A DNA stretch of 64,000 nucleotides from Escherichia phage vB_EcoM_112. This document shows, in pieces, positions 45,750 to 64,000 of the stretch; position 1 is the stretch's first letter, and each line of letters begins with the position of its first letter. A program made the translations under genes and the position numbers. The DNA is taken from sequence record NC_024125.2; one strand, 5' to 3'. The notes beneath the pieces were generated by a model. That model saw only the letters and a program-made list of their open reading frames with translations. It had not been told where the DNA came from and did no database searches.

Positions 45750-45790
45750 AATAAACCCTTACTTTAAATAGATAAGGGTATTTATTATTT

Positions 45791-46569: not shown

Positions 46570-46571
46570 AT

Positions 46572-47047: not shown

Positions 47048-47048
47048 A

Positions 47049-47592: not shown

Positions 47593-48518
47593 TTCAATAC
47601 CTCAATAGCATTACGTAAACCATTTGCTTTTGCATTAAGAGCTTTTAACAATTTGGTGTGTTCTGCAATTTGGGCTTCAACTTCAATCAAACGAGCATTG
47701 AGATATTCGCGTTCTTCACTCAGATTATCAACCTTTTCTACTTTAGGCTCTTTTACAACTGTCTTATATGTATTAGGGTTCTTCAGTTTAATTAGAATGC
47801 GTGAACTGTATAACATTGAACCATTATTTTCGGTTTCGTCATACATTTCTACTACATCCATAATTTTTAACATCATGCGGAGTTTATAAGACAACGAACG
47901 AATAGTTTTGTTGTGCTTATTAATTTCTTTAGCTGTCATGGTGCCGAGATTACGTGAGTAATAATAAGGAACCTGGATATTAATTAATACTGATGAACCA
48001 CCTGGCTTGTGTGTTACTTCATCAGCAATAACCCAGTCCTTAACATGAACTGTATTTGTACGGTCATCACCCGCGGTAAACAGTTTGCGAGCATGCTTAA
48101 AAAGCATATTCACTTGGTCATTGAATTGACAAGCAAATTTATCAGCAAATTTAGTTTCAGGAATGGTAGATAACCAATCAGCCAAATGAGTCTTTTTAAC
48201 ATCGTTAACAATAGTAAATTCAACCAAATCGGTTATAGATGTCTCAGATTTAATAAAGCTCGGCTTCATAAAGTTTTTAATGTTATCGTGAGCTACAGTA
48301 GAAGATAACATACGAGAACGTTTAAACCATTCAAGCAAATTACCTAACGAATGAGAATAAGCGTTTTGAGTATCTTTACAGATATGATTTTCCTGGCCAA
48401 CATATTGAAGGAAATCACGAAGAATATTATTGATTACTGCTCTGTGTCCGATCTGATAATTACGGTGTTTAGTAATAAGACTGTCAAAATAATCAATATA
48501 ATGTTTACGAGTTTTCAT
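47589..48518 (-). CDS. hypothetical protein with C-terminal coiled coil, 309 aa; member of a four-gene tandem family
   Basis: Conserved KPVE-like motif then helical tail. Confidence 0.6.
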   Translation of the reverse strand: MKTRKHYIDYFDSLITKHRNYQIGHRAVINNILRDFLQYVGQENHICKDTQNAYSHSLGNLLEWFKRSRMLSSTVAHDNIKNFMKPSFIKSETSITDLVEFTIVNDVKKTHLADWLSTIPETKFADKFACQFNDQVNMLFKHARKLFTAGDDRTNTVHVKDWVIADEVTHKPGGSSVLINIQVPYYYSRNLGTMTAKEINKHNKTIRSLSYKLRMMLKIMDVVEMYDETENNGSMLYSSRILIKLKNPNTYKTVVKEPKVEKVDNLSEEREYLNARLIEVEAQIAEHTKLLKALNAKANGLRNAIEVLK

Positions 48519-48572
48519 GTTCTTCTCACTTGGTTAATGATTTATACTCCGAGCCATCCTTGGCTTTAAATT

Positions 48573-49574
48573 TTACTTAATTAACTGTAAAGCTTGTTCT
48601 AAACGATCAAGACGATTAACAGATTCTTCCCAAATCCTTTTAGCCTGCTCATATTCTTTCTGCGCTTTATTAGAAATTTCTAGAACTTCTTTATAAGCTT
48701 TTTCTAGTGCAATAACTTCTGGACGAATTTCTACCGGTTCAGGTGAATCATCAAGATTATCCATTAGTTCCTCAAGGGTAGTTTCTTCTTTAGGAGTATT
48801 CACAATTTCATCACATTTTTGCTGGTAAATTTCTTTATCAGTCGGTGAGTACGCACACTTTACTTCACGAAGACTAATTACAATTTTATATCCTTCCCAT
48901 CCGCATATATTCTTAAAAGGATATGTATGAATACTTTTTACAGTTTCCATACAGCCCAAAGCCGTCTCTAATTGATGAGTTATAGTGCTAGCAATTGAGA
49001 AAAATTTATTAATGTTCTTTTGATTAGCTGCTGGTGTAAAAAATCCATAATTCACAAAAATAGCTACTTTATTTTTATCAAGCTCATATTCTTTTACGAT
49101 AATCATATCAGAAGCCAAAGGATGAATTTGACGATAATCGCCATAACATAATTTAGAAGCTGATTTTAGAATTTGTCCTTTGAAAAGTCTGAAATTACTA
49201 ATCCAACGACGAGTAAAAATATTCTCAGGGTCTTCTTTGATATTAAGATGATAAGAATTAACATCACCGAACCAATTATATCCTACTACATCTTTAGTTC
49301 GTTTAATTTCTTTCCCAAAATTACCAAGAATATCCCTATTAACCAAATATGAAAGAAGACGAGACCCTTTAAAGGTTTTCTTAATGGCATCTTTATCTGT
49401 ACGACTAGAAATTTCACGAACTTCATGAATAAATTTGCCGGAAGAAACAATACTTGCATCAATATTATTGAGCCATTGATTGATAATAGAAAGAACGATA
49501 TTTTGACCAAACATCGGTATAGCTTTATCATCAATAACGCTGTTGAACGATTTAATATATTCGTTGCGAGTCAT
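48573..49574 (-). CDS. hypothetical protein with C-terminal coiled coil, about 333 aa
   Basis: ATG at 49572-49574 with GAGGAG RBS; tracked start overlaps promoter -10. Confidence 0.6.
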   Translation of the reverse strand: MTRNEYIKSFNSVIDDKAIPMFGQNIVLSIINQWLNNIDASIVSSGKFIHEVREISSRTDKDAIKKTFKGSRLLSYLVNRDILGNFGKEIKRTKDVVGYNWFGDVNSYHLNIKEDPENIFTRRWISNFRLFKGQILKSASKLCYGDYRQIHPLASDMIIVKEYELDKNKVAIFVNYGFFTPAANQKNINKFFSIASTITHQLETALGCMETVKSIHTYPFKNICGWEGYKIVISLREVKCAYSPTDKEIYQQKCDEIVNTPKEETTLEELMDNLDDSPEPVEIRPEVIALEKAYKEVLEISNKAQKEYEQAKRIWEESVNRLDRLEQALQLIK

Positions 49575-49602
49575 ATTAATCTCCTCAGTAGAAAGTAAGA
49601 AC

Positions 49603-49632
49603 ATTATACCACATCCTTGTGGCGAAGTAAAC
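49603..49632 (-). promoter_or_regulatory. T4-type early promoter (GTTTAC-N18-TATAAT)
   Basis: Plus gtaaac 49627-49632, attata 49603-49608. Confidence 0.6.
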
Positions 49633-50639
49633 TAGTTTAGTGCATTTAGTGCGTTGTTCAGTTTAGAACGTTGCTTCGTGAGATTTTTGACTTTTTCTAG
49701 CATCTTTTCAGCTTCTAACACTTCATTGGTCGCTTTAACGAGTTCATCATCTACTGCCTTGATAGACTTCTCAATCGCATCCGCGTGCCATTTTTCAACA
49801 GGTTTAAGACTCGGATTTTCAATAGGAAGAAAATTCGCTTTATTAAATTTCCATGCATCTTTATTACCTGAGCTATACATCCAAAATTTAGGATCGTTTG
49901 ATGAGCAATTAGATAAATTTAAGTTATCTTGCACTTCCTGCTTTTTCTCTTGCGTGACTTCGTCTTTTCTCAAAAAATCATATTTAAATGAAACGATCAT
50001 ATCAAGTTCATATGTTGTTGTATGTTCCCAATTTCGCTCAAAACGAGGTAAAATCTTAGACTGAACAGCGGCAACAACATCCATATACTTAAATGCTTCT
50101 GTCAACTGTGATTTAAGGCATTCACAAATTGAAAGAGAATTTTTTGTATTAGGTTTAAAGCTAATTCGTGCAGTTCTATTATTTTCTTTTAACGGTCTTA
50201 CTTCCATCTGAAGAGTATAACCATCAAATTTCAGATTCTTTAAGTTAATATCAGAACCTTTTAATCGACTAGCAGTAGACAAAATTTGCTTTAATTGTTT
50301 ACGAAATAGAGCAATAAATCTCCATTCAATACGATAATGATTTGGATTAAAAAATCCTGTTGATAAATCAACCTTACTCTGACCAACGCCTTGAACAAAT
50401 AGAGGATTTTTATAATCAATAGTTTTACAGAAATCGGTGAGCTGCTCACGAGCAGTCATTTGTGTAATATATCCCGCTTTACTAAAATGACGTAACCATT
50501 CACTGCTATTCATATACTTAAAGTGAATATCACGATTAACTTTATCAGGGTCTAAATTATTTTGGCACAAAAATGTCATAACATTACGGGTATAGCTGGC
50601 ATTACGAACCATATCTTCAATTTGAGAACGAGTTTTCAT
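49632..50639 (-). CDS. hypothetical protein with C-terminal coiled coil, 335 aa
   Basis: ATG at 50637-50639. Confidence 0.6.
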   Translation of the reverse strand: MKTRSQIEDMVRNASYTRNVMTFLCQNNLDPDKVNRDIHFKYMNSSEWLRHFSKAGYITQMTAREQLTDFCKTIDYKNPLFVQGVGQSKVDLSTGFFNPNHYRIEWRFIALFRKQLKQILSTASRLKGSDINLKNLKFDGYTLQMEVRPLKENNRTARISFKPNTKNSLSICECLKSQLTEAFKYMDVVAAVQSKILPRFERNWEHTTTYELDMIVSFKYDFLRKDEVTQEKKQEVQDNLNLSNCSSNDPKFWMYSSGNKDAWKFNKANFLPIENPSLKPVEKWHADAIEKSIKAVDDELVKATNEVLEAEKMLEKVKNLTKQRSKLNNALNALN

Positions 50640-50647
50640 GGTGTTCC

Positions 50648-51535
50648 TTAAGATTTAAGTAAATCAACAATTTTAATTAATTTTTCACGCTCAGATTTAG
50701 CTTTACTACTCAATCCAGATAGTCTGAAAATTTCATCGTCATACTGTTGAATAGAAATATTCAGCTCTTCAATTTGCTTATTAAAATAATCAATTTGCTC
50801 AGAATGTTTTTCATTACTGCGAACTGGTACAGGTTTTGTAGGCAATTTAGTTAAACTGGATTCATCCGGGCGATAAATTAAAATACAACTTGAACCAATC
50901 GGGCATTTAGCACCAGACACATATTCTAATGTTCCGGCTTCTTTTAAAACTTCAAAAGCTAAACAGAGATGATGCCCCATATTAACATAATCTGTAGAGC
51001 GAGCTCTGACGTAATAATCATCGCCGCGAATACTAAATTTAAAGCATTTAAGGTCTTCTGTATTATTGGTCTTAAAAATCATTTGTTTATCTAGACCTTT
51101 AGCTAATCTAGCGCCTAATGCTAATAATCGTCGTTGATTTTCCCACAAATCCGCAATCATTTGATCGAATGACAATTTCGGCATTAGTCGGCCATAAAGG
51201 TCATATCCTTTATTATAATTACGAAGGATTTCACTCGCGTTAATACGAGACAATGCTCCAATTTTATTAAGGGCTTTCATGATGCGATTAGATAAACCCA
51301 TTCCAGACCCGTTTGTTCGTTGTAAATGTTTATCTAATCCAAACCCAATATCAACTTTAAATTTATCTAAAATTTCAGCATGAACATCTCTGTCAATAAC
51401 ATTCAAATCCAAAGTTGGGTTAAATCTATGAAAAAATTTATCTGGCTCTCCACGACGAAGTACAGTCCATTCATTTAATTTTTTATTAACTAAAGATTTA
51501 ATTACTGTATTGACATTATTAATTACTACTGACAT
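50648..51535 (-). CDS. hypothetical protein with C-terminal coiled coil, about 295 aa
   Basis: ATG at 51533-51535 (tracked start TTG). Confidence 0.55.
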   Translation of the reverse strand: MSVVINNVNTVIKSLVNKKLNEWTVLRRGEPDKFFHRFNPTLDLNVIDRDVHAEILDKFKVDIGFGLDKHLQRTNGSGMGLSNRIMKALNKIGALSRINASEILRNYNKGYDLYGRLMPKLSFDQMIADLWENQRRLLALGARLAKGLDKQMIFKTNNTEDLKCFKFSIRGDDYYVRARSTDYVNMGHHLCLAFEVLKEAGTLEYVSGAKCPIGSSCILIYRPDESSLTKLPTKPVPVRSNEKHSEQIDYFNKQIEELNISIQQYDDEIFRLSGLSSKAKSEREKLIKIVDLLKS

Positions 51536-51546
51536 ATTTTTCTCAC

Positions 51547-51951
51547 TCAATTTTCAATTTTACTAAATACACAGAATATGATGGAAAAGACTATATAAGC
51601 ACCGCATACAGATTGAACTAATACCATTCCAAAGAACCAAACAATATTATCAAACAATGTCTGTTTTACGTCGAAAGGACGTAAACTTACAGTAATATTA
51701 TCACCTTTTTCTATTGAAGAATACATCTCTGGTGAAATATATTCGCTAAATCTATAACCGTCATTTAGTTCATATACGGCAATAAACGATAAACTAGACC
51801 CCTTTCCTTGTGTTCCTGTAAAGGTATTAACTATAGTAACATCATAATCTTTATAATGCATATAATCATTAATTGCGTAATAACCATATGCAATTACTAT
51901 ACATAAACAACATATCAATAAATTCAATCTTTTAATTATCAACTGTTTCAT
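51547..51951 (-). CDS. membrane protein, 134 aa
   Basis: Hydrophobic segments at both ends. Confidence 0.55.
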   Translation of the reverse strand: MKQLIIKRLNLLICCLCIVIAYGYYAINDYMHYKDYDVTIVNTFTGTQGKGSSLSFIAVYELNDGYRFSEYISPEMYSSIEKGDNITVSLRPFDVKQTLFDNIVWFFGMVLVQSVCGAYIVFSIIFCVFSKIEN

Positions 51952-51980
51952 AATAATCTCAATTAAAAGGGCTTAGAACC

Positions 51981-52004
51981 ATTATACCATCCTTGGTATA
52001 AAGC
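51981..52004 (-). promoter_or_regulatory. candidate middle promoter (imperfect MotA box plus TATAAT)
   Basis: Transcript CGCTTTA, 12 nt, TATAAT. Confidence 0.35.
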
Positions 52005-52006
52005 GG

Positions 52007-52534
52007 TTATGCGAGTACCGTCTTTAACCGTTCTTCAAATTTCCGAAGAGTGTTCTGGCGTTCAGCTCTTTGCTTTTTGTAAGTTTCAATACGCTCTGAA
52101 ATGAGATTGTATCGTTCATTTACTGATTCTTTCATAAAATCAGGAATTTCACGAGAAGCTTTAATCTCGTCAAATTTATCAATAACAGCTTGCTCTTCAG
52201 CAATTAAGTTATCATACATCAAAATATCTTTCTTGATGAACTCAATATCTTCTTGAGTTACACGAGATAATTTAGATGCTTTATCCTTTTTGTACTGTTC
52301 GTTAGTATCACGAGACCAGTGTAATGTACGATTTTTATTCGTATTTTTGTAAATTTCTACAATACCAATCTCATCGATAATAACGATCCAATTCCAACGA
52401 GATTTGTAAATTTGTCCTCCATCAACCGTGATTTCACCTCCAATTGAGATGTCATTAAAGAACTTGCTTTGAGCTTCAGATTTAAATTTACCATCATTGT
52501 AGTTTACCAAGTTGAAAATATCTTTAGCATTCAT
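52007..52534 (-). CDS. hypothetical protein, about 175 aa
   Basis: ATG at 52532-52534 with GGAGG RBS; tracked N-terminus is translated promoter/leader. Confidence 0.55.
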   Translation of the reverse strand: MNAKDIFNLVNYNDGKFKSEAQSKFFNDISIGGEITVDGGQIYKSRWNWIVIIDEIGIVEIYKNTNKNRTLHWSRDTNEQYKKDKASKLSRVTQEDIEFIKKDILMYDNLIAEEQAVIDKFDEIKASREIPDFMKESVNERYNLISERIETYKKQRAERQNTLRKFEERLKTVLA

Positions 52535-52908
52535 TTTCTGTTCCTCCGTAGTTGATAGGGTAATAGTACCACGGAAGAACAGTCTTGTAAACAACTAAAA
52601 GAAACTTCTTTCACAATTTTTCCACTGAACCACGCGCTCACTGCTTTCTTAGTCTCAGGAGCGGTGTTATCCATAAACCATTCAAAGGCAGCCTTTTTAT
52701 GATTCTGGAGGGCTTCTCGGGCTTTAATCTGCTCACGGTCTATTAACACTAACATATGAGCCTTTCTTGTCACCAGGGGCTTCTTATGATTTTTTGAATA
52801 CTCCCAATCATTTGTCCATCGCATCGTTGTTGCGAATTGAAGTACAGCTTCCTTAATCTTAGTTTCGTAAATTTCACGAGCCTTTGAGTATAACATCATT
52901 ACCTCCAT
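52531..52908 (-). CDS. hypothetical protein, 125 aa
   Basis: ORF track; 3' end contains the downstream early promoter. Confidence 0.5.
   Translation of the reverse strand: MEVMMLYSKAREIYETKIKEAVLQFATTMRWTNDWEYSKNHKKPLVTRKAHMLVLIDREQIKAREALQNHKKAAFEWFMDNTAPETKKAVSAWFSGKIVKEVSFSCLQDCSSVVLLPYQLRRNRK
52563..52592 (-). promoter_or_regulatory. T4-type early promoter (GTTTAC-N18-TACTAT)
   Basis: Plus gtaaac 52587-52592, atagta 52563-52568. Confidence 0.55.
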
Positions 52909-52997
52909 TTACTAGTTTAATTCTAGTCATCTTTTTGATGGCAGTCCATATAATCTATTTCTGAACTGCCTTTTTGTCATAGAAGGCCTCTTATGAA

Positions 52998-53966
52998 TTA
53001 TTTCAGAAGAGTAACCTCAGCAATTTCTCCCCAACCATTTTTGTCGGTCATAATAAAGTCAGCAAGATAAAGAGCAGTACGCAGTGAAACATTGCGTAAA
53101 CGATTAACATTGACTTTCATCCATGATAATGCTTTATAAGTTTCTTCATCAGAAAGACCACGCTTTTGCATCATGTCGGTTGAAAGAATAACATCTTCAA
53201 CCCTGACCATAATTTCTTCATTAGTGTGAACACCCAAATCTAAATAAACTGAGCGGGAAACTAATGCTTGTAAATGTGGAGCAAGTTTAGTACCACGGTC
53301 TAATTCGCGGTCAATGTCAACGTTTGTGATAAAAACAATCGTTCCTTTAAATTCAAACTCACGCTCAATGCCTTTTTCTTCTAAGTAAGAAGATGCGGTA
53401 CTCCAGCAGACTTTACGGGTCTCTCCAGTGTCCAGAGCAGCTTTCAGAAGATTAAGAATGTCCATATCAGAGAAAACATCCACATCATCAATCAAAAGGA
53501 CAGAATTCTCTTCACGATTATTCCAAAGCTGCTCATAAAGACCAATACCAGAGATTTTACCGTTAATGCTTTTATATTCAATGTATCCATTATCATTTGC
53601 TTTATTTAAAGCTTTATCTAAAGAATACGTTTTACCAATACCTGCTGCACCAGAGATAATTAATGAACGAATGTTTCCGTTAATAATACCATTCGTCATC
53701 ATTCCCATAACATTAAATCTTTTATTAATGCGGGTTTTCATATCTTCATATGATTCTTTAACTTCTTCAACTTTTACACCATCATATGAAATGTCTGATT
53801 TGTAAACCCAAACACCGCGACGTTTACCGTCAATTTCAACAAAAACTTTACCATCTCCTTGTGCATCTACCGGAGCATTATCTGGGAACCATTCGCCTAA
53901 GAGCTCAAAAGTTCCAGAGATTTCTTTACCGAAGTAGATACCCTTATTGATAGTTACAGTTTTCAT
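52998..53966 (-). CDS. P-loop ATPase (AAA-like), about 322 aa
   Basis: Walker A GAAGIGKT, Walker B LLIDDVD; ATG at 53964-53966. Confidence 0.65.
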   Translation of the reverse strand: MKTVTINKGIYFGKEISGTFELLGEWFPDNAPVDAQGDGKVFVEIDGKRRGVWVYKSDISYDGVKVEEVKESYEDMKTRINKRFNVMGMMTNGIINGNIRSLIISGAAGIGKTYSLDKALNKANDNGYIEYKSINGKISGIGLYEQLWNNREENSVLLIDDVDVFSDMDILNLLKAALDTGETRKVCWSTASSYLEEKGIEREFEFKGTIVFITNVDIDRELDRGTKLAPHLQALVSRSVYLDLGVHTNEEIMVRVEDVILSTDMMQKRGLSDEETYKALSWMKVNVNRLRNVSLRTALYLADFIMTDKNGWGEIAEVTLLK

Positions 53967-54003
53967 TTTATTCTCCAAATCTGTATCAGTAGTTGATAGT
54001 TGT

Positions 54004-54033
54004 ATAGTACCATAAAGCTTTATGCTTGTAAAC
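54004..54033 (-). promoter_or_regulatory. T4-type early promoter within a repeated promoter-leader cassette
   Basis: Plus gtaaac 54028-54033, atagta 54004-54009; leader near-identical to the one at 26792-26835. Confidence 0.55.
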
Positions 54034-54063
54034 AACTTTGTGAAAAATTTTTGAAATAAAAAA

Positions 54064-54081
54064 GGGAGCCCGAAGGCTCCC
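54064..54081 (-). terminator. CUUCGG tetraloop hairpin after the nucleotidyltransferase-like ORF
   Basis: GGGAGCC-UUCG-GGCUCCC on transcript. Confidence 0.55.
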
Positions 54082-54083
54082 TA

Positions 54084-55097
54084 TCATTTATAATAACTTC
54101 GGTGGTTTTCAAGATAGACCTTCTCAAGGAAGTCATCCCAGAAACTCATGTCTACTTTTTGCTGCATACCGTTCTTAGAAGCTTCAGTAGATGCTGCTTC
54201 TACTTGATCGACCGCATCTTCCAAAAACTCTTGAACGGTTTTAAATGGATGTTTACCCAACTTCACGTCGAGAATAAATGGAGCATCTTGGAGTGGATAA
54301 ATCAAGTCGCCAGTTTTGTAAATTTCCAATAGTTGAAGTCCACCACGGCAAGCATGGCTCAGAGCTTTCCAGTCAATACCTTCGTTGGCTTCAGCCTTAC
54401 GAGCGCGTTCACCGTATTCAGCATCTAATTTGTTCAGTGACTGCTTAAGCTCAATAAGAGAAAGAGTTGTCTGATATTTACGACCCAACACTGTGTAAAA
54501 CGTCTGTGGGCCTGTTTTCTCATGATTATGGAACACCCATTCACAGAATTCGTTTTCTGGAAGACGATGCTTAATATCTTCAACTTTAGTACGACGCTGC
54601 TTAATAGAACCATCTTCTTGGTAATCAACCCATTGCTCAGGGATTTGATTAACTACTTTCAATACATCACGTAATGCAGCCAAACGAGAACCCTTGACAC
54701 CGTATTTAGAAGCTTGCTTGCGGACATATCCTAAATATGATTTCATGTTAGTCGTATAAAAACGAGAACGGTTGTCTTGGATAAACTTCCACACATCAGG
54801 CAAATCAGATTTAACCACTAGTTCAGGTGGAGTGTGAAGCATATCTAATGCTACGGTTTCACCATCTGCTGCTAATTTAAAGAAATACTTAAGACTGTAT
54901 AGTTCATGGTCAATATCATCTTTAGTGTTTTTAGATGATGTGTTGTTGGTATTTTTACTCATATGCTCTTTGACGTTTCCGATAAGAATATCGCGAGCAG
55001 GAGGAACAAAGATTTCTTTAAAATCTAAGTCAGATTCTGGGGTAGAAGTTCCATACAGATGACTACCAAAATAGCTTTTCATTACTGTTTTCATCAT
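54084..55097 (-). CDS. nucleotidyltransferase-fold protein, 337 aa
   Basis: N-terminal GSHLYGTSTPESDLD resembles the GS...DxD motif of Pol-beta-type NTases. Confidence 0.55.
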   Translation of the reverse strand: MMKTVMKSYFGSHLYGTSTPESDLDFKEIFVPPARDILIGNVKEHMSKNTNNTSSKNTKDDIDHELYSLKYFFKLAADGETVALDMLHTPPELVVKSDLPDVWKFIQDNRSRFYTTNMKSYLGYVRKQASKYGVKGSRLAALRDVLKVVNQIPEQWVDYQEDGSIKQRRTKVEDIKHRLPENEFCEWVFHNHEKTGPQTFYTVLGRKYQTTLSLIELKQSLNKLDAEYGERARKAEANEGIDWKALSHACRGGLQLLEIYKTGDLIYPLQDAPFILDVKLGKHPFKTVQEFLEDAVDQVEAASTEASKNGMQQKVDMSFWDDFLEKVYLENHRSYYK

Positions 55098-55555
55098 TCA
55101 GCCTTATATTCAATAACAGGACATACTTTAGCTTTACGCGCTTTTAAAAATTCGACGATAATCGATTTCTTTGGTTGAATAGGAGGTAAACCTTTATACG
55201 CCCTATCAATATTTTCTAGGTGTAAAGCATAATCCTTTTTCCATTTATAATCTTTATATTTTTCACGCAAATGTGCAGGAATAACAAATGAACCGATAAT
55301 AAGTAAAACAACCAAAAGCGCAAGTATAAATGCCGATGGAAGAAGAGTCCATAAACTACCGAAAATAAGCCAACGTTGTAGGCTTTCTGCACAAATAATT
55401 GTTAACCCTACGAGTATAGCACACCCAAAAATAGAAACGAAAAATGTAGGAATGACAATAGACCAAAAATATGCGCATAGTGTCTTAGGTCGTTGCCATT
55501 CATCGTTAAACAATTTGAATAATTTATAGTGCCAAGAGTTTTCATTAATAATCAT
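55094..55555 (-). CDS. membrane protein, 153 aa
   Basis: Multiple hydrophobic segments. Confidence 0.55.
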   Translation of the reverse strand: MIINENSWHYKLFKLFNDEWQRPKTLCAYFWSIVIPTFFVSIFGCAILVGLTIICAESLQRWLIFGSLWTLLPSAFILALLVVLLIIGSFVIPAHLREKYKDYKWKKDYALHLENIDRAYKGLPPIQPKKSIIVEFLKARKAKVCPVIEYKAE

Positions 55556-55557
55556 AA

Positions 55558-56079
55558 TTATCCTTTCATTGAAGGCGTAACGGTTGTTAAATACTTAATC
55601 ATAGCTTCAGCTTCTGATTTTGATAATGAAATTTCTCCATTGTTTTGACGAATAGAAATAAAATCCGGATGACGGTCACCACCAGCTTTTAAAACACACA
55701 TATAAGTATCAACTTCGCCTTCAATATTTGAAATGATTGAAGCAGTTCCACATGAATGCGGTTTTTGATAAATCAATACAGCTTTTCTTCCACCGTTTGA
55801 CTGCTCATAGGCTTTTAATACATCAAGCAAATCAGTTCTTTTATCAATAGCTAAAATGTTGTTTTCATCTTCAATGTTAAATCCTTCGGATACTTCATAA
55901 AGCGTTACCCATAAATCACCAATGTCAATAACAGCATTTACTTTTCCACGGCTTTTAAGAGTATGACAAATTTTCTTGATTTCGTCATAACTCATTTTAA
56001 TAATATCATCTCCTTGACTAAGGAAGATGTCATTTTTAAATTCAACACGAATTAAACCACTTCCACTTGAAATAAACAT
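55558..56079 (-). CDS. hypothetical protein, 173 aa; paralog of 56086..56640
   Basis: Shared C-terminal motif (KYLTTVTPSM vs TYLDSVIPTM). Confidence 0.55.
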   Translation of the reverse strand: MFISSGSGLIRVEFKNDIFLSQGDDIIKMSYDEIKKICHTLKSRGKVNAVIDIGDLWVTLYEVSEGFNIEDENNILAIDKRTDLLDVLKAYEQSNGGRKAVLIYQKPHSCGTASIISNIEGEVDTYMCVLKAGGDRHPDFISIRQNNGEISLSKSEAEAMIKYLTTVTPSMKG

Positions 56080-56085
56080 ATTTCC

Positions 56086-56640
56086 TCACTTTGAAATCAT
56101 AGTTGGAATAACAGAATCAAGATAAGTCTTTAGTGCAATAGCTTCGTCTTTGGTAAATGTGACAATATGTGCTCGAGAATCATCAATTTGGCGAACAAGT
56201 ACGACATCGCCATCTTCATAAGAAGTCTTGACATCCAAAGTCGTAGTATAATTTGCAGCTACTGGATTAATAATGCTAGCACCGCGATCTTTAGCCCATT
56301 GAAGTTTAGCCTTTTCGGGTGTTTCGACTGTTTCAGATTCCAAGAATTCTTTCACCTTGGCAACGAATGTTGCCCAATTGTTGATAGAAAGACACATAAA
56401 TTCAGTTTCAATATTACCGCCGTAAAGGCCACGATAAAAACGAACTTGGAGGTCGCCTGTAATATTAGTTACACCGGTAACTCCTGAGGGAGCATAAGAT
56501 AAAATCGCAGCCAGTTCCATAGGAAGAATAGTAATACTATCGTCTTCCTGCGTCAGAACGTATACATTATCACGTTTTTCGATAACCAGGTCACCGAACA
56601 AATCAGTTGTTTCAATTACAGCTTTCATATTATTTACCAA
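56086..56640 (-). CDS. hypothetical protein, 184 aa; paralog of 55558..56079
   Basis: ORF track. Confidence 0.55.
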   Translation of the reverse strand: MVNNMKAVIETTDLFGDLVIEKRDNVYVLTQEDDSITILPMELAAILSYAPSGVTGVTNITGDLQVRFYRGLYGGNIETEFMCLSINNWATFVAKVKEFLESETVETPEKAKLQWAKDRGASIINPVAANYTTTLDVKTSYEDGDVVLVRQIDDSRAHIVTFTKDEAIALKTYLDSVIPTMISK

Positions 56641-56815
56641 TTAAAGTTTCAATATAAGAATCAAGATTTACTTTAGCTTCTTCCATAAGAGTTTTGTATT
56701 TAATCTTGTTAGCATGTCCGGAGAAAGCTGATTCATCAATAATTGTTGATGTATGAACAGCTTTACTATACGTCTCAATTAATTCTCTTAATTTAAAAGC
56801 CTGCTCACTTGTCAT
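56630..56815 (-). CDS. small helical protein, 61 aa, member of a ~60-aa paralog family
   Basis: N-terminus MTSEQAFKLRELIETY. Confidence 0.5.
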   Translation of the reverse strand: MTSEQAFKLRELIETYSKAVHTSTIIDESAFSGHANKIKYKTLMEEAKVNLDSYIETLIGK

Positions 56816-56947
56816 TACATACTCCTTTGAATAATATCAATAATGTTGTTCACCAGATTATAAGTAAACATTGGATAATTATATTGAATCATCACATACA
56901 CAACAAACAAAACTTTCATTCTCTTCTCCTTGACAGTTGGCAAGATT

Positions 56948-56977
56948 ACTATACCATAACCTTGCCAACTTGTAAAC
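56948..56977 (-). promoter_or_regulatory. T4-type early promoter (GTTTAC-N18-TATAGT)
   Basis: Plus gtaaac 56972-56977, actata 56948-56953. Confidence 0.5.
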
Positions 56978-56979
56978 CA

Positions 56980-57153
56980 TTAAATGACGTTTTCGATAAA
57001 ATTCTGAAGCTTTGTGTGAGCATCAACCATGATTTTCATTTCTTCCTTTGCGAAAGCTGTACCTCTTTCCCGAGAAGAACACTCATAGTCAGAAACTGCA
57101 TTAGCATATTCTTCAATTAGCTTCATTAAAAACATCTGCTTTTCAGTTTTCAT
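56980..57153 (-). CDS. hypothetical small protein, 57 aa; not in ORF track
   Basis: Translated codon by codon: ATG 57151-57153 to TAA 56980-56982. Confidence 0.4.
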   Translation of the reverse strand: MKTEKQMFLMKLIEEYANAVSDYECSSRERGTAFAKEEMKIMVDAHTKLQNFIENVI

Positions 57154-57337
57154 TATTCCACCTAATCATTTCAAGATATTGAACTAACTTAGCTTTAGAT
57201 TTATCCAAATCCCTTTTAGCTGATTCTATACCTTCGTATGAATATCCTTCACAATGCTCAACTGCCAATTGATATGAATCTATTTCAATATCACGTGCTA
57301 ATTTAATGATTTTTTCAAACTGTTCGCGTGTTAGCAT
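57143..57337 (-). CDS. small helical protein, 64 aa, paralog family member
   Basis: N-terminus MLTREQFEKIIKLARDI. Confidence 0.5.
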   Translation of the reverse strand: MLTREQFEKIIKLARDIEIDSYQLAVEHCEGYSYEGIESAKRDLDKSKAKLVQYLEMIRWNNEN

Positions 57338-57339
57338 AA

Positions 57340-57522
57340 TTAAACTCTCGTATTATGATCGATAATTTCATCAAGAAACATATCTAACGCTTCTAAAGCA
57401 TTATCAACTTTAGCTTCAAGTTCATCAATACCTGATAAGGCAAAATTAATGCGCTCCTCATCTGCTTTGCGAATTAAAGCTACCAATTCTTTAAGTTTAT
57501 CTGCTTGTTCTATACTAATCAT
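57340..57522 (-). CDS. small helical protein, about 60 aa, paralog family member
   Basis: ATG at 57520-57522; [17 protein letters not shown]. Confidence 0.45.
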   Translation of the reverse strand: MISIEQADKLKELVALIRKADEERINFALSGIDELEAKVDNALEALDMFLDEIIDHNTRV

Positions 57523-57710
57523 TATTCCACCACATATGAAAGAGAGAATATTGCACACGCCATATGAGTTGCAACTTCATCACACATATTATAACGTTTC
57601 TTAAGAAGTTCTACAAGTTCTTCACTAGTAACTTCATCCATGTCGACGAAAAAATCACCATTAATGATGACGTAGATATTTCCTTCTTGATTAAGTGCTT
57701 CAATTTTCAT
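57522..57710 (-). CDS. hypothetical small protein, about 62 aa
   Basis: ATG at 57708-57710 with AGGAG RBS; tracked start is TTG inside the promoter. Confidence 0.5.
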
Positions 57711-57738
57711 GATGTTCTCCTCTTTATCCGATGGTTGT

Positions 57739-57768
57739 ATAGTATCACAGCTCAAATGGAAAGTAAAC
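57739..57768 (-). promoter_or_regulatory. T4-type early promoter (GTTTAC-N18-TACTAT)
   Basis: Plus gtaaac 57763-57768, atagta 57739-57744. Confidence 0.55.
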
Positions 57769-57784
57769 CGGTAAAATGAAAAAA

Positions 57785-57800
57785 GTCTCCCGAAGGAGAC
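57785..57800 (-). terminator. intrinsic terminator-like CUUCGG hairpin
   Basis: GUCUCC-UUCG-GGAGAC on transcript followed by UUUUUUCAUUUU. Confidence 0.65.
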
Positions 57801-57805
57801 TAATG

Positions 57806-58192
57806 TTATTCGAGGGAAAGAAGATATTTACTTTGATAAAACATTCCAGTAATATCATCTATCGTACTTTGAATGGCTGGAGGCATTTCTTTGTAAATGC
57901 TGTTAGATTGGTCTAGTATACGATCAATCATTTTAATTGTGTCGGTAGGAAGTTTACTGGCATCCGGAATTGAAGGAGTGTATTTTCTACCAGAATACCC
58001 CAAATACTGCTCACCAAATTTATCAATCAAATCTGGCAACTCAGAGAAAATAAAATCGTATGCTTTGTGTCTAGCATAACTTTTAGTTTCAAAATGTGCA
58101 GAATGAAAATAAGCTTGTGCAGCCATTAATAAACCTAAGTATTCATCTGCCTTTGAAGGTTTTCCACTTTGTGAAAAGTCGCTGAATTTCAT
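57806..58192 (-). CDS. hypothetical protein, 128 aa
   Basis: ORF track. Confidence 0.55.
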
Positions 58193-58482
58193 TCAGTCTC
58201 CAATTTAATGTTCATAATTCTAGCGTATGATTGTGCCATCTCCGCGCCTCGTTCTATACATTCAAAATCAGAAGAGCATGGGTCATTTTTATAGGTCGTT
58301 CTCATAAAACTATAGAATTGTTCAGACGATTCTACGCTTTTATTTTCAAAAAGCATATAAACGTGCCTAATACCAGATTCCATAAATTTATCAAAATGAG
58401 GATCGACATTCGCTTCAATCGATGGAGATAAAACAAATGACAATCCTAGCATGGCAAAAAGTGCCGTTGCTTTTAAGGCCAT
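58189..58482 (-). CDS. rI: lysis inhibition protein RI, 97 aa
   Basis: N-terminal signal anchor MALKATALFAMLGLSFVLSPSIEA; length. Confidence 0.85.
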   Translation of the reverse strand: MALKATALFAMLGLSFVLSPSIEANVDPHFDKFMESGIRHVYMLFENKSVESSEQFYSFMRTTYKNDPCSSDFECIERGAEMAQSYARIMNIKLETE

Positions 58483-58494
58483 AAAGGCCTCCTA

Positions 58495-58707
58495 TCATTT
58501 TTGTCCTGTATTTACTTTATGCCGATGCACGGCCTTAACTTTATCAAGGTATTTTTCAAAATTTCGCAATCTAGTATAGTCTGCCGGAGATTGATTGAGT
58601 GATACTTCTCGACGCAAAGCTGAAATGATATTTCCAACTTCCCTACGAATTTCATCTAATTGAAGCACAGTAAGATTGCGAAGTTGCTTTTCAGTTAATT
58701 GTAGCAT
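58495..58707 (-). CDS. hypothetical protein, 70 aa
   Basis: ORF track. Confidence 0.5.
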
Positions 58708-58749
58708 ATATACCCCTTTAGTTAGATAAACCTATTTATAACTTTTGCA

Positions 58750-59331
58750 CTAACCGAGCTTTTTAGTTAATTCATTCCAATGTTTTCTACACAAAGAAAC
58801 ATAAATTTCATCACCAATACAGATTTGATTACCTTCTTTAACTGGTGTTCCATCTTCCATTAATCGAGCTGTCATAATCGCTTTTTTGCCGCAATGACAA
58901 ACTGCCTTTAGTTCAATAAGTTTATCTGCAATCGCTAAAAGTTCTTTAGAACCTTCAAACAATTTTCCAGCGAAATCAGTCCTTAATCCATAAGCCATAA
59001 CAGGAACATTATATGTATCAACAATTCGGCTCAATTGATGCACCTGTTCAGTTTTTAAAAACTGGGCTTCATCTACAAATACGCAATGAATATCTTTTTG
59101 TGCTTCAGCCCATTTATAGAACTCGAAAATATCCATATCATCTGTAATAATATTTGCTTCCTGCCTAATTCCAATGCGAGAAACGACTTCACAGACAGAA
59201 TCGCGAGTATCAATAGCAGGCTTAAGAACTAATACACTCATTCCACGTTCTTTATAATTATGTGCAGCAGTCAAAAGAGAAGCAGATTTTCCAGCATTCA
59301 TTGCTGCATAAGTAAAAATTAAACTCGCCAT
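58750..59331 (-). CDS. tk: thymidine kinase, 193 aa
   Basis: P-loop AAMNAGKS; C-terminal zinc ligands CHCG...C..H; length. Confidence 0.9.
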   Translation of the reverse strand: MASLIFTYAAMNAGKSASLLTAAHNYKERGMSVLVLKPAIDTRDSVCEVVSRIGIRQEANIITDDMDIFEFYKWAEAQKDIHCVFVDEAQFLKTEQVHQLSRIVDTYNVPVMAYGLRTDFAGKLFEGSKELLAIADKLIELKAVCHCGKKAIMTARLMEDGTPVKEGNQICIGDEIYVSLCRKHWNELTKKLG

Positions 59332-59332
59332 C

Positions 59333-59521
59333 TTAGTCCTTAGTTAAATTTTCTAAATATGTTTCTAAATCATTTTCAGCTTTATCGATAGATTTTACTA
59401 ATTCGTAATATGTTTCGGCATCTCCATATTCAGAAGATATTTCAAAAGACAAATCCTTTTCTAAACTAATAATTTCACCAACTAAAAATAATATTTCGTT
59501 CTTTTGTTCGCGAGTAATCAT
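59333..59521 (-). CDS. small helical protein, 62 aa, paralog family member
   Basis: N-terminus MITREQKNEILFLVGEI. Confidence 0.5.
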   Translation of the reverse strand: MITREQKNEILFLVGEIISLEKDLSFEISSEYGDAETYYELVKSIDKAENDLETYLENLTKD

Positions 59522-59703
59522 AAGGAATTTATATAATTAATAAGTTCTTGTTCTTTATTATCGAATTCTTTAGAAAGTTCTTCGTACTCGTTTGCACTAA
59601 AAGGACCGCATTCATTACAAACTTTTTCCAATTCGCTATTTTTATCCATAACTTCGTGGATAAGAGAAAAGAGTTTGTCTTTTTGTTCTTTGCTTAGGCT
59701 CAT
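59518..59703 (-). CDS. small helical protein, 61 aa, paralog family member
   Basis: N-terminus MSLSKEQKDKLFSLIHEV. Confidence 0.5.
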   Translation of the reverse strand: MSLSKEQKDKLFSLIHEVMDKNSELEKVCNECGPFSANEYEELSKEFDNKEQELINYINSL

Positions 59704-59873
59704 ATATTAATTTCCAGAAGTTTTAAAATAATTCGCTTTTGCTTAAATATTTCCATAGTTAAATGATCAGTATCTTTTTGACCAATTCCAATGGCAAAAC
59801 CTTTATTAGCAGCGAGTTCAATTAAATTATCAAGTTCACGTAACACTTCGTACTGTAACTCAGAACTATTCAT
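59700..59873 (-). CDS. hypothetical small protein, 57 aa; not in ORF track
   Basis: Translated codon by codon: ATG 59871-59873 to TGA 59700-59702. Confidence 0.4.
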   Translation of the reverse strand: MNSSELQYEVLRELDNLIELAANKGFAIGIGQKDTDHLTMEIFKQKRIILKLLEINI

Positions 59874-60082
59874 TTCGGTTTACCTTCTTTAACGAAATCT
59901 GGATAAGGATAAAATCCCGAATAAAATCCTTCACCTTTATGATTGACGCATCCTTTATTAGAACAATAGCACCAATAATCGAAATCACAAGCCATTTCAT
60001 CGTTGCATAAAGCAAAAACAACCGGCCACTTACACTTTTCACAATGGGCATTTTTAAGAATACTAGTTTGGCTCATAACCAT
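59870..60082 (-). CDS. cysteine-rich small protein, 70 aa
   Basis: Eight Cys, CEKCKW...CYCSNKGC. Confidence 0.5.
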   Translation of the reverse strand: MVMSQTSILKNAHCEKCKWPVVFALCNDEMACDFDYWCYCSNKGCVNHKGEGFYSGFYPYPDFVKEGKPK

Positions 60083-60300
60083 GTCACCTTTAAGCAGTAT
60101 TCTTCTACATGCTGTTTACGACCTTTCTTATCAATAAAGGTATATTCAACGAATGTTCCAATGTAGTCTTTATCTACATCATGTGGACTATTAATTGGAC
60201 ATTTAGTACGGCAAATGCGTTCCCATTGACGAATAATTACTGCCTTATTCTTTGGGTCATACGGATGTGGATAATGTATATTCATAATAACGGTTCCCAA
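60073..60300 (-). CDS. hypothetical protein, 75 aa
   Basis: ORF track. Confidence 0.5.
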   Translation of the reverse strand: MGTVIMNIHYPHPYDPKNKAVIIRQWERICRTKCPINSPHDVDKDYIGTFVEYTFIDKKGRKQHVEEYCLKVTWL

Positions 60301-60749
60301 TCAACAATCACAATTTCTAATTTAGAGGAATATGTATCTAAAATCCCCTCAATAATATCCCAGTTCCCTTTACCTATGCCTGCACCAATCCTAGGCATAT
60401 AGATTGTAGGTTTAATCAGTTTATTTTCACCAAACTCATTTAATTCTAACATACAATTCATTAAAGCGGAATACTCAAAATTTGGCCCCGGTTGAAATTG
60501 AGTATAAAGATTAAAGCAGTAAGCTTTATGAGTCCTAAAGTATTTTTCATAGACTGAGTAAGAACCGAGTTTAGTTACATCGCCCCATTCTGTCTGTAAT
60601 TTATCAGCTTCCAAAATTTTAGGGAAAGCTTTGGTTAATTGACCCGCTACGCCTGAACCCATAGTATGAAAACAATTGCATCCATGCGCAATATTTTTAC
60701 CTTCAGCGAAAAGGGCGACAATATCGCCCTTGATATATTTTACAATCAT
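60282..60749 (-). CDS. macro-domain (ADP-ribose-binding/processing) protein, 155 aa
   Basis: Macro-domain-like elements GDIV...IAHGCNCFHTMGSGVAGQL and IGAGIG. Confidence 0.55.
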   Translation of the reverse strand: MIVKYIKGDIVALFAEGKNIAHGCNCFHTMGSGVAGQLTKAFPKILEADKLQTEWGDVTKLGSYSVYEKYFRTHKAYCFNLYTQFQPGPNFEYSALMNCMLELNEFGENKLIKPTIYMPRIGAGIGKGNWDIIEGILDTYSSKLEIVIVDWEPLL

Positions 60750-61087
60750 CTAGTACTCAATCCTCGATTATAAGAATCTACCAAACGGTCAACCATTGAA
60801 TGACAAGCGGCTTTATCTTTCTCCTCCGCAACTGAACATTCTAAAGTATTCCACTTTTTAGCATATCGTTTTAACAATGTATCATTTTTGTATCTGCTTG
60901 ATTTATCTCTTTCTCCGTCTTTATATGCATATATTAATTTCTGCGCAAATTCAGCTTGGCATGCTTTATTTTTCCCGCAATAATCCGCTGCAGTACGGTT
61001 TACATACTCTCTAATTTCAGTATATGATGTATCTGCTAACGCAGAAAATGAAATTAATCCTATACATAAAACCAAAATTTTAGTCAT
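60746..61087 (-). CDS. secreted protein with signal peptide, 113 aa
   Basis: MTKILVLCIGLISFSALA leader; four Cys. Confidence 0.55.
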   Translation of the reverse strand: MTKILVLCIGLISFSALADTSYTEIREYVNRTAADYCGKNKACQAEFAQKLIYAYKDGERDKSSRYKNDTLLKRYAKKWNTLECSVAEEKDKAACHSMVDRLVDSYNRGLSTR

Positions 61088-61625
61088 TTACTATTTCCAA
61101 AAGTTTATTATTTTTAAGGTAATTAGCCTTTTCTAGGACTTCAGAAGCATATTTAGAACCAGCTTTAACATTCCATCCCGAATTATAAGAGGATATTGCT
61201 TTTCTTATATCGCCCTTATGTATATTTAACCAATAAGAAAGTTCAATGTACGCCCAGGAAGCTGAATTGGATCGTTTATTCAACATTCTTTTTATTTCAG
61301 CATCGGTCATATTATAACCAAGTTCCTTAACTCTTGCTCGCATAGTAGGCAAATAATTTTGGAACATTCCGTAGGCGTGATGCTTTGGTTTAGATTTTAA
61401 ATTAACTCCGCCAGAGCTTTCTTGCCATAAAATAGCAGCCATTATATGACCTAATCCGCTCTTGTGGATGTTTTTATGTGTTTTATATTTTCCATCCTTA
61501 GAAAATTGTTCCCCGAATTGATACGCGTAACGCATGTTATCGAGTTGGACATTACTGAAAGTATGCTCGGAGCTATGTGCCATCATTGAAATGGCCAATA
61601 GACCAGCGAGTAGTGCTTTTCTCAT
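61080..61625 (-). CDS. periplasmic lytic transglycosylase-like (SLT domain) protein, 181 aa
   Basis: Signal peptide; SLT-like motifs WQESSGG, YGMFQ, SSYNSGW. Confidence 0.55.
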   Translation of the reverse strand: MRKALLAGLLAISMMAHSSEHTFSNVQLDNMRYAYQFGEQFSKDGKYKTHKNIHKSGLGHIMAAILWQESSGGVNLKSKPKHHAYGMFQNYLPTMRARVKELGYNMTDAEIKRMLNKRSNSASWAYIELSYWLNIHKGDIRKAISSYNSGWNVKAGSKYASEVLEKANYLKNNKLLEIVND

Positions 61626-61632
61626 GCTTACC

Positions 61633-62094
61633 TCATTTAGTTTTAATTACTGCTTTAGAAGCCTTTCCTGGTAAACGGCGACTGTTGATAATTGCCATCC
61701 TACATTGAAGTGATGGGTCTTTGAACTTCTCATTAGGTTTACAAACTGTAAATCCAAGCCAAAGATTTCCATCTGTAATTTCTAAACGTCCAGGACGATA
61801 TTCAACCCCATCAATAAAATCCTCGTCAATGTCAGGACGCGGAGGCATACTCAGGAATTCATTAACTTCTAAAACATGGTCTTTTATTTTATGGAATAAT
61901 TCAAAAACATATGTCTCATCAATCTCCCGTTGAATTGCACGATCAAGAAGATGTTGAGAATATTTTAGATGAAACGATGAGACTCCTGCTGCTTTTGATG
62001 CCTCACGAATCTCATTGTTAATTTGACGAAACTCCGACTCAAAATGACGACGAAGCTTATTTCGACGGATAAAAACTTCTGTATTGATAGTCAT
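61633..62094 (-). CDS. regB: RegB sequence-specific endoribonuclease, 153 aa
   Basis: Length and synteny; early promoter upstream. Confidence 0.8.
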   Translation of the reverse strand: MTINTEVFIRRNKLRRHFESEFRQINNEIREASKAAGVSSFHLKYSQHLLDRAIQREIDETYVFELFHKIKDHVLEVNEFLSMPPRPDIDEDFIDGVEYRPGRLEITDGNLWLGFTVCKPNEKFKDPSLQCRMAIINSRRLPGKASKAVIKTK

Positions 62095-62121
62095 GTTGTT
62101 CTCCTCTTAACTGATAGAAAA

Positions 62122-62151
62122 ATTATACCACAGTCAAGAGGAAAAGTAAAC
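62122..62151 (-). promoter_or_regulatory. T4-type early promoter (GTTTAC-N18-TATAAT) upstream of regB
   Basis: Plus gtaaac 62146-62151, attata 62122-62127. Confidence 0.6.
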
Positions 62152-62153
62152 AG

Positions 62154-62474
62154 TTATTCTTTAAATCTAATCAATTTATTCATAGACTTTGAAACTTCTG
62201 CACGAACCTCATGTAGATTTTTGAGCTGTTCAAGACGCTGCTCATAGTAAGCAATTTCATCTTCTTCGAGACAGTCCTGTGAATCTTCTTTAAGATAACG
62301 TGCATAGTCCTGGAAAGCGTTACGAACTACTTCCTGGAAGTCATCAAGACTTTGAATTTTCTTAGGAGCAACAGATACACGACGAGGGGCAGTATAATAC
62401 TCATAACCAAACCCTGCGCTTAATTGAGCCATTAGTATTTTTCCTCTGGTTGGAACACTGCGCGGCAAGCCCAC
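62154..62474 (-). CDS. hypothetical protein, 106 aa
   Basis: ORF track. Confidence 0.5.
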
Positions 62475-62698
62475 ATACTGGCTTCTTTGAGTTTCGTTTT
62501 AGCAATAGTTAACTGATCGAGGCTTTCGGCGTAATTCTTCGCGAGTTCATCATCTTCACAGCTATCAAATGCTTCCCAAAATTCATCGTATAAAGCATCA
62601 AAGATAAGTCCTAAACGAACTTCAGCGTCTTTAATAGCATTTACTTTACCGATTTTTTCGTCGGTGTGTGGCTTATAACCTTTAATATCTTCAATCAT
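62432..62698 (-). CDS. hypothetical protein, about 88 aa; by position possibly the vs.4/Acb2-type anti-CBASS protein
   Basis: ATG at 62696-62698 with GAGGAAG RBS; second ORF after regB; no sequence-level confirmation. Confidence 0.4.
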
Positions 62699-62912
62699 AT
62701 TTGACTTCCTCACCAGTGCATAAATCATATTCAACTAAACGAATAGGTTCATGAATGCCATATCCCTGAACAGAAATTTCTGTCGTGGGATAAATTCCAT
62801 CAATATCGCCCATATTCCACGCTTCATTAAATTGCTGTTCACCTGAATTACTAAACCATTCGGCGAAAGCATTTAACACATCTTCAGAGCCTTCAATAAT
62901 TATCTTTGCCAT
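62691..62912 (-). CDS. hypothetical protein, 73 aa
   Basis: ORF track. Confidence 0.5.
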   Translation of the reverse strand: MAKIIIEGSEDVLNAFAEWFSNSGEQQFNEAWNMGDIDGIYPTTEISVQGYGIHEPIRLVEYDLCTGEEVKYD

Positions 62913-63274
62913 TACAAACTCTCGGTAAAGGTACGAGCGATAACGTCGCGCTGCTGTTCCGGAGTCAGAGAGTTAAAGCGAACTGCATAACCGGATACAC
63001 GGATGGTCAGCTGCGGATATTTTTCCGGATGCTTAACTGCATCTTCCAGAGTTTCACGACGCAGAACGTTAACGTTCAGGTGTTGACCACCTTCAATTTT
63101 AACTGTAGGTTGTGGCTCAATTTCAATTTCACGGGCATGCAAACCATAGAAAATTTCTGGGTCTACAAAAGAGTCCTCTTTAAAGGTTTTAGAGACAATA
63201 ATTCGTGCTTGAATACCATCTTCAAAATAAATAGTACCTTTATGTGTGCCTTCAAGAATTTGATATGCTTTCAT
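62912..63274 (-). CDS. autonomous glycyl-radical cofactor-like protein (GrcA/YfiD family), 120 aa
   Basis: C-terminal glycyl-radical motif [27 protein letters not shown]. Confidence 0.7.
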
Positions 63275-63281
63275 ATAAACC

Positions 63282-63611
63282 TCAATTAGAAAATAAATTT
63301 ATCCAAGATTGTTCTTTAATTAAAAATGGCTCAGAATCATATGCCATTAAACTTTGGGTAATTAATCCTTTAAAAGGTCCATCAATAAATTCCATGGTAA
63401 AATACGGAATTTTATTCATTAGCCGTGAATTAGGAGCAGTGCACAAAACTCTGCATCCTTTGAATACACCTTTTTGTAATTTGTATTGCTTGGGATAAAA
63501 TTCGCTTAAAATGTTGTTATTTGCCAAAATTTCAAAATGATTTACCAATTTATTTTTAATAGTTTTTGGCGAAAAATAAAGATATTCGAAAAGCTGTGTG
63601 TCTGTCATCAT
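63282..63611 (-). CDS. hypothetical protein, about 110 aa
   Basis: Tandem ATGs at 63606-63611 coupled to upstream stop. Confidence 0.5.
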
Positions 63612-64000
63612 TGCATTCCGATTACGAAAAACTGCGGACGAGTAATACCACCAATGCAACATTTACTATTACAGCAGTAGTGTACAGTGTCAATATGGAC
63701 GCTATAAATCTTATCCATATCAGGAGATTTGACAGGCTCATCAATTATATACAAAATTCGCGAAAGCGATAAACCTCTGAACTTACTTCCTTTATTACCA
63801 ATAAAACTGCGCACAGAATCAGTAAATAAACGAAAACGTATATCATCATTAGAATAACGCGAAAATTCCTTTTTAATGTTATTTGCAGAAATTTTAGCGT
63901 AAGCTGAAGTATTAGAAAGAACAATAACTGTTCCGCCATCATACAGCCAATTAGCAGCAAAGTTAGTCACAGCAATTGATTTACCGGATTGACGTCCACC
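63608..64000 (-). CDS. partial CDS (N-terminus beyond window end), P-loop NTPase-like
   Basis: Frame open to the window edge; Walker A GGRQSGKS at 63977-64000; Walker B-like ILYIIDE. Confidence 0.45.
   Translation of the reverse strand, partial: GGRQSGKSIAVTNFAANWLYDGGTVIVLSNTSAYAKISANNIKKEFSRYSNDDIRFRLFTDSVRSFIGNKGSKFRGLSLSRILYIIDEPVKSPDMDKIYSVHIDTVHYCCNSKCCIGGITRPQFFVIGMQ

Follow-up and report, generated by a model that had tools for sequence, protein, structure and literature searches.

The window, by which we mean the whole 64,000-nt stretch of DNA that we analyzed, contains on its minus strand a small gene, vs.6, whose product is best described as a member of the phage branch of the GrcA (YfiD) family, a branch for which functional validation comes through the T4 protein Y06I. 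We consider it highly probable that Vs.6, like its T4 ortholog, acts as a spare part for the pyruvate formate-lyase (PFL) of the host. The identification of the gene is in itself already known and ordinary, because T4 Y06I was characterized in 2001 and GrcA is routinely annotated in T4-like phages.

Identity and genomic setting of vs.6

The initial annotation had placed a 120-aa ORF at this locus, and its coordinates were exactly right (Table 1): the ORF lies on the minus strand, begins with ATG, ends with TAA, and encodes a protein with a computed mass of 13.8 kDa. The putative ribosome-binding site shares nucleotides with the stop codon of vs.7, the gene upstream, and the TAA of vs.6 overlaps the ATG of the next gene, a packing that is typical of T4 early-gene blocks. 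When we scanned the surroundings of vs.6 for promoters and terminators, the counts were not above those in shuffled sequence. An antisense ORF of 127 aa (62906..63289, plus strand) was taken as a shadow of vs.6.

Vs.6 shares 119 of its 120 residues with T4 Vs.6/Y06I (NP_049730, for which the RefSeq name is GrcA). The sole difference is at residue 73, which is Arg in the window and in E. coli GrcA but His in T4. The two genes have the same length, with 3 nucleotide differences in the 3' half, and they occupy the same position: T4 vs.6 is flanked by vs.7 and vs.5, with vs.4, vs.3 and regB downstream, and the neighbors of vs.6 in the window are the same as in T4 and KMB40. Other genes in this part of the window–those for RegB, an SLT-like Vs.1, a macro-domain protein and an Acb2/Tad1-type Vs.4–also agree with the T4 map. 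By sequence and position, the ORF is thus assigned as the ortholog of T4 vs.6/Y06I. The 1.2 kb around vs.6 has 97.5–98% identity to many Tequatrovirus genomes, and the window as a whole is identified by its sequence as a Tequatrovirus (T4-like) genome. In near-identical phage records the gene is labeled 'vs.6: autonomous glycyl radical cofactor', 'GrcA' or 'pyruvate formate-lyase'.

Two other genes in the vicinity also have recognizable domains. The gene at the T4 vs.4 position, two ORFs downstream of vs.6 (62432..62734, minus strand), has a Pfam hit to the Acb2/Tad1 hairpin domain (E = 1.4e-19); members of the Acb2/Tad1 family are phage sponges for cyclic-nucleotide immune signals (anti-CBASS). 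At the T4 tk.4 position (60282..60749, minus strand) there is a gene for a 155-aa macro-domain protein (Pfam Macro, 2.9e-6). A bioRxiv preprint deals, by its title, with orphan antitoxin-like enzymes with which T4-like phages neutralize DarTG1, and this protein could belong among them.

Table 1. Coordinates of vs.6, its parts, and the nrd genes in the window.
Feature	Coordinates	Strand	Description
vs.6 (Y06I) CDS	62912..63274	-	From the ORF list; 120 aa; phage GrcA/YfiD homolog (autonomous glycyl-radical cofactor)
GAGG, putative RBS	63280..63283	-	5 nt upstream of the vs.6 ATG; found by sequence inspection only
vs.6 5' half, codons 1-60	63095..63274	-	Phage-type, AT-rich; corresponds to the disordered half of YfiD
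172-nt exact run shared with E. coli grcA	62925..63096	-	Gene nt 179-350; encodes the structured glycyl-radical domain
Gly95 codon (GGT)	62990..62992	-	Predicted radical glycine, from alignment to 6OWR and PFL 697-759
nrdH	41233..41541	-	Glutaredoxin-like; 99/100 residues identical to T4 NrdH
nrdG	42172..42663	-	Radical-SAM activase of NrdD; Pfam Fer4_12 (1.6e-48) and Radical_SAM; 78% identity to T4 NrdG
nrdD	43462..45279	-	Anaerobic RNR large subunit; Pfam NRDD (1e-171) and Gly_radical (6.6e-25); 605 aa, uninterrupted
nrdC	46784..47047		Pfam Glutaredoxin; T4 gene order

The glycyl-radical domain and pyruvate formate-lyase

Vs.6 was initially described as ending with the glycyl-radical motif RVSGYAVRF. 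The motif is present, at residues 92–100, but it is not at the very end of the protein, because 20 residues follow it. The Pfam domain Gly_radical (PF01228) matches Vs.6 with an E-value of 2.8e-18 (66.8 bits, compared to a gathering cut-off of 22.2). E. coli GrcA/YfiD, in the form of PDB entry 6OWR, matches residues 22–120 (E = 8.6e-42), and the C-terminus of PFL (residues 697–759) is identical to Vs.6 at 49 of 63 positions (78%; E = 5e-26). The last 62 residues of Vs.6 (residues 59–120), which take in the loop of the radical glycine and also the C-terminal helix, have 100% identity to E. coli GrcA (P68066; 6OWR). Gly95 of Vs.6 is aligned both with the glycine of the GrcA motif and with Gly734, the radical site of PFL. 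An alignment to E. coli GrcA had been set beforehand as the check on the proposed GrcA/YfiD-like nature of the protein, and in it the radical glycine context is fully conserved, inside the identical 62-residue block. Judged by these scores, the glycyl-radical match is far beyond a chance motif, and the description of the protein as a GrcA/YfiD-like spare part was borne out.

In structural terms Vs.6 has the features that define the GrcA family: it is a stand-alone protein of ~14 kDa with a PFL-type radical domain, and its gene, which has its own ATG and ribosome-binding site, is flanked by unrelated small phage genes and is not a piece of a larger gene for a glycyl-radical enzyme. Its score against the NCBIfam equivalog TIGR04365 (spare_glycyl) is 153.3 bits over residues 20–120, which is below the curated cut-off of 170 because the N-terminal half of Vs.6 is divergent. 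PHROG 1209, labeled 'unknown function', matches the protein over its full length (residues 1–120; E = 1.2e-62). E. coli GrcA is a 127-aa protein encoded on the host chromosome, whereas Vs.6 has 120 aa and is encoded in the genome of a lytic phage. Compared to PflB, an enzyme of 759 aa, Vs.6 lacks the catalytic barrel and the Cys418/Cys419 site; what the two have in common is the RVSGYAVRF loop within PflB residues 697–759, the piece that is replaced by the spare part. The radical domains of the GrcA2 and GrcA3 families (NF008341 and NF038360; 78–80 aa) align to residues 60–120 of Vs.6 (E = 6.8e-27 and 5.6e-31, respectively), but these families have no N-terminal half at all, and Vs.6 scores under their cut-offs.

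The function of the T4 ortholog has been published. Andorfer et al. 2021 (PMC8683613), in a summary of Wagner et al. 2001 (BBRC 285:456), describe two small 'spare part' proteins, YfiD of E. coli and Y06I of T4, by which the function of oxygen-cleaved PFL is restored and which were the only spare parts validated at that time. For T4 Y06I, the same summary, again citing Wagner et al. 2001, states that PFL-AE installs the glycyl radical and that the protein then forms a complex with cleaved PFL. Nolan et al. 2006 (PMC1524935) placed vs.6 among only 11 T4 ORFs of unknown function that are conserved in five T4-like genomes, and had already noted its Gly_radical match.

The mechanism that we propose for Vs.6 begins with the reaction between oxygen and the glycyl radical of active PFL, which cuts the PFL chain at Gly734 and kills the enzyme. 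Vs.6 would replace the lost C-terminal glycyl-radical domain with a fresh copy, on whose Gly95 the host radical-SAM activase PflA would place the radical, and the complex between Vs.6 and cleaved PFL would again be able to convert pyruvate into acetyl-CoA and formate. Infection by a T4-type phage shuts off the transcription of host genes. An infected cell would be unable to induce grcA because of this shut-off, and we infer that this is why the phage carries a copy of its own. The output of acetyl-CoA, formate and ATP could in this way continue when a fermenting host meets oxygen, and the sustained fermentative energy metabolism could help phage yield under fluctuating low oxygen.

A repair role for oxygen-damaged glycyl-radical enzymes had been suggested initially. 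The suggestion is supported for host PFL, which is the target validated for the T4 ortholog (PMC8683613, citing Wagner et al. 2001); the validation does not extend to glycyl-radical enzymes generally. Our analysis identifies the repair target as host PFL and not the anaerobic ribonucleotide reductase (RNR) of the phage. A benefit to the phage in anaerobic or gut replication can reasonably be inferred; in the accessible literature we found no in vivo vs.6 mutant phenotype and no test of an anaerobic or gut benefit. More widely, vs.6 would illustrate how enteric phages that are strictly lytic bring along accessory genes with which the fermentative energy metabolism of the host is kept alive under fluctuating oxygen.

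The N-terminal half of Vs.6 looks homologous to that of YfiD but strongly diverged: it shares with GrcA only 18 of the 51 residues that align, the HMMER alignment begins at residue 22, and two deletions in this half leave Vs.6 7 residues shorter than GrcA. It contains a motif that is conserved across T4-like and T5-like phages. Residues 1–60 of YfiD are disordered, residues 61–127 duplicate the fold of PFL residues 693–759, and the N-terminal half aids the binding and activation of cPFL (PMC8683613). Because this half matters in YfiD, the phage protein could have other kinetics than YfiD or prefer other partners. A phage-specific half of this kind also leaves room for altered partner behavior, and since the corresponding half of YfiD governs cleaved-PFL binding and activation efficiency (PMC8683613), Vs.6 might conceivably be a decoy or modulator that competes for PflA or occupies PFL, redirecting or damping host fermentation for the benefit of the phage. 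We consider this very improbable, because the T4 protein restores the function of cleaved PFL (according to PMC8683613, citing Wagner et al. 2001), and because the catalytic half has been kept identical to that of the functional host GrcA under strict purifying selection, which would be needless for a mere blocker. In the phages that we compared, the C-terminal half departs from E. coli by synonymous changes only (dN 0), apart from R73H in T4, and by this measure vs.6 is under purifying selection.

By tblastn we found homologs of Vs.6 in 1587 phage records, and in 1538 of these the match spans 80% or more of the protein. Among the carriers are T4-like phages of Escherichia, Klebsiella, Enterobacter, Citrobacter, Yersinia and Aeromonas, as well as T5-like Demerecviridae. 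In the T5-like phages (for example, Escherichia phage HildyBeyeler, L089:1501-1869; also loci L137-L163) the homolog is a 122-aa GrcA-like protein whose gene lies within the tRNA gene region, and its N-terminus starts with MKAYQ, as do the T4-like proteins. On these observations, the GrcA-like gene family appears to be common to unrelated lytic phage families. Several nominally viral IMG/VR contigs that were matched in the search with Vs.6 (L164-L174) have ORFs of 124–284 aa that resemble C-terminal fragments of pflB (GC3 0.44–0.59) and are not small GrcA-like genes; these contigs are probably host DNA or prophage flanks.

DNA similarity between vs.6 and host grcA

At the DNA level the two halves of vs.6 differ sharply. 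The 5' half has a GC content of 0.33 and a GC3 of 0.18, and blastn detects no similarity between the first ~178 nt of vs.6 and E. coli grcA; the match begins at nt 179 of the gene. From codon 60 onwards the phage and E. coli sequences are near-identical, with a sharp boundary at the 5' side. Codons 60–120 together with the stop codon are identical to E. coli grcA at 179 of 183 nucleotides (180 of 183 in T4), and the longest stretch without a mismatch is 172 nt. Between the two halves GC3 rises from 0.18 to 0.44, the level of E. coli grcA (0.43). The patch boundary is ~7 residues inside the structured half of YfiD (residues 61–127), and the patch therefore encodes nearly all of that half. The matching segment is present in every complete E. 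coli genome searched (5426 of 5426, at 95–99% identity), and in a megablast search with positions 39001..64000 of the window this patch was the best match in each one of the 5426 genomes.

The patch is closer to E. coli grcA than the grcA genes of related bacteria are. Over the same segment, E. coli and Salmonella grcA are identical at 154 of 183 sites (dS about 1.0), and E. coli and Citrobacter amalonaticus grcA at 170 of 183 (dS 0.36), whereas dS between phages and E. coli in the patch is 0.05–0.23. Because of this low divergence relative to the other hosts, we attribute the patch to a recent source in the Escherichia lineage itself. Transfer from host to phage is the direction indicated by the composition of the patch and by the orderly way in which grcA has diverged among the enterobacterial species sampled.

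In the 14 named phages and 80 IMG/VR loci that we compared, the patch is restricted to the Tequatrovirus/Mosigvirus lineage. Its identity to E. coli is 95–98% in the named phages and 96.7–98.9% in IMG/VR loci L096-L101. In the genera Karamvirus, Slopekvirus, Pseudotevenvirus, Krischvirus and Jiaodavirus, as in the Aeromonas phages, the T5-like phages and a jumbo Yersinia phage, identity to any of 81 host grcA genes does not go beyond 70–89%; this panel does not contain K. pneumoniae, K. aerogenes or Aeromonas. We had considered a general 'host tracking' of C-terminal DNA in other phage lineages and rejected it within this panel, because the others reach only these values.

Klebsiella phage Shinkou (Jiaodavirus, L084:1501-1863) has a compositional step of its own: the GC content of its vs.6 is 0.56 in the 3' half and 0.34 in the 5' half. 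Its 3' half matches the best of the 81 host grcA genes at 162 of 183 sites, in the panel without K. pneumoniae and K. aerogenes, and may have been acquired separately, from a Klebsiella host that is missing from the panel.

In one IMG/VR locus (L101), the N-terminal half resembles the Mosigvirus and JK45 alleles. Compared to the window, this locus has 20 differences in the 180 nucleotides of the 5' half (dS 0.39) but none in the 170 nt with which the 3' half begins (Fisher p about 1e-6). The point at which the identical stretch ends on its 3' side varies among phages. The patch looks younger than the split between Tequatrovirus and Mosigvirus, and its properties suggest that it came from host-to-phage gene conversion. 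It may reflect either repeated conversion against host grcA, or a single converted allele that was spread by phage–phage recombination. One specific version, in which vs.6 is a maintained chimera of an old phage N-terminal half and a C-terminal half that is repeatedly overwritten by recombination with E. coli grcA during infection, we put forward tentatively, as possible but somewhat short of probable. If it is true, the structured domain is kept nucleotide-identical to that of the host, and vs.6 would be a natural case of ongoing gene conversion from host to lytic phage, with a boundary close to the junction between the disordered and structured parts of YfiD. The host-identical patch, which we regard as a modest side observation, could serve as a natural marker of the frequency of recombination between T4-type phages and the host chromosome. 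We found no description of a DNA mosaic between vs.6 and grcA in the accessible literature, and a prior description is possible.

The 172-nt run that is identical to E. coli grcA and the host-like composition of the patch would also be seen if vs.6 were a piece of host grcA that the phage had captured recently and kept as a passenger without a selected function. This explanation is extremely unlikely. Only the 3' half is host-like, and the 5' half is old, phage-specific and common to distant T4-like and T5-like phages. The ORF is intact and has a ribosome-binding site and translational coupling, the patch has a dN of 0 across the sampled lineages with the exception of R73H in T4, and homologs over most of the protein's length are as numerous in phage records as the tblastn counts above indicate.

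Anaerobic ribonucleotide reductase genes in the window

The initial annotation had set vs.6 alongside anaerobic RNR genes. The genes nrdD, nrdG and nrdH are indeed in the same window (Table 1), but they are 17.6–22 kb from vs.6, and so are not alongside it. Vs.6 and NrdD both contain the Pfam Gly_radical domain (PF01228), and Nolan et al. 2006 (PMC1524935) suggested a role for vs.6 in nucleotide metabolism, so Vs.6 might be a part of the anaerobic RNR system of the phage, either as a spare domain for oxygen-cleaved NrdD or as a substrate or partner of NrdG. The activase of NrdD is a different one, NrdG. A BLASTP comparison between Vs.6 and the NrdD of the window gave no significant similarity (E = 5.5), and the radical motifs of the two proteins are unlike (RRTCGYLG in NrdD, RVSGYAVRF in Vs.6). 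The idea of a spare part for NrdD was rejected, because the pairwise BLASTP and the motif comparison are both against it. With its 100% identity to GrcA and 78% identity to PFL 697–759, the radical domain of Vs.6 is assigned to the PFL/GrcA type and not to the RNR type. The 17.6 kb that separate vs.6 from nrdD in the window, and the published biochemistry–activation by PFL-AE and rescue of PFL, as summarized in PMC8683613–also argue against a role in the RNR system, which we judge to be very unlikely.

The gene order in some Aeromonas phages is the other point that bears on an RNR role. In Aeromonas phage PX29 (L093:2023-3447), a distant T4-like phage, the order is nrdD-nrdG-vs.6-nrdC-nrdH, so that vs.6 lies between nrdG and nrdC, with a 23-nt overlap between vs.6 and the 3' end of nrdG. 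In a second Aeromonas phage, nrdG appears under the same match. The PX29 arrangement suggests that vs.6 is co-expressed there with the RNR activase, and the presence of vs.6 in the nrd cluster of some Aeromonas phages is a hint of some connection with the anaerobic RNR module, for which the PFL model does not account.

The nrd region of the window differs from that of T4 in several ways. In T4 a group I intron with I-TevII divides nrdD, whereas nrdD in the window (within 42172..45279) is uninterrupted. Between nrdG and nrdD there is an ORF of 276 aa (42639..43469) with GIY-YIG/NUMOD3 matches, at the place where T4 has the HNH endonuclease gene mobC; the true start of nrdG is probably the ATG at 42642. 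Together with the difference in similarity to T4 between NrdG (78%) and NrdH (99%), this makes the nrdG–nrdD region look like a case of local mosaicism around a homing endonuclease.
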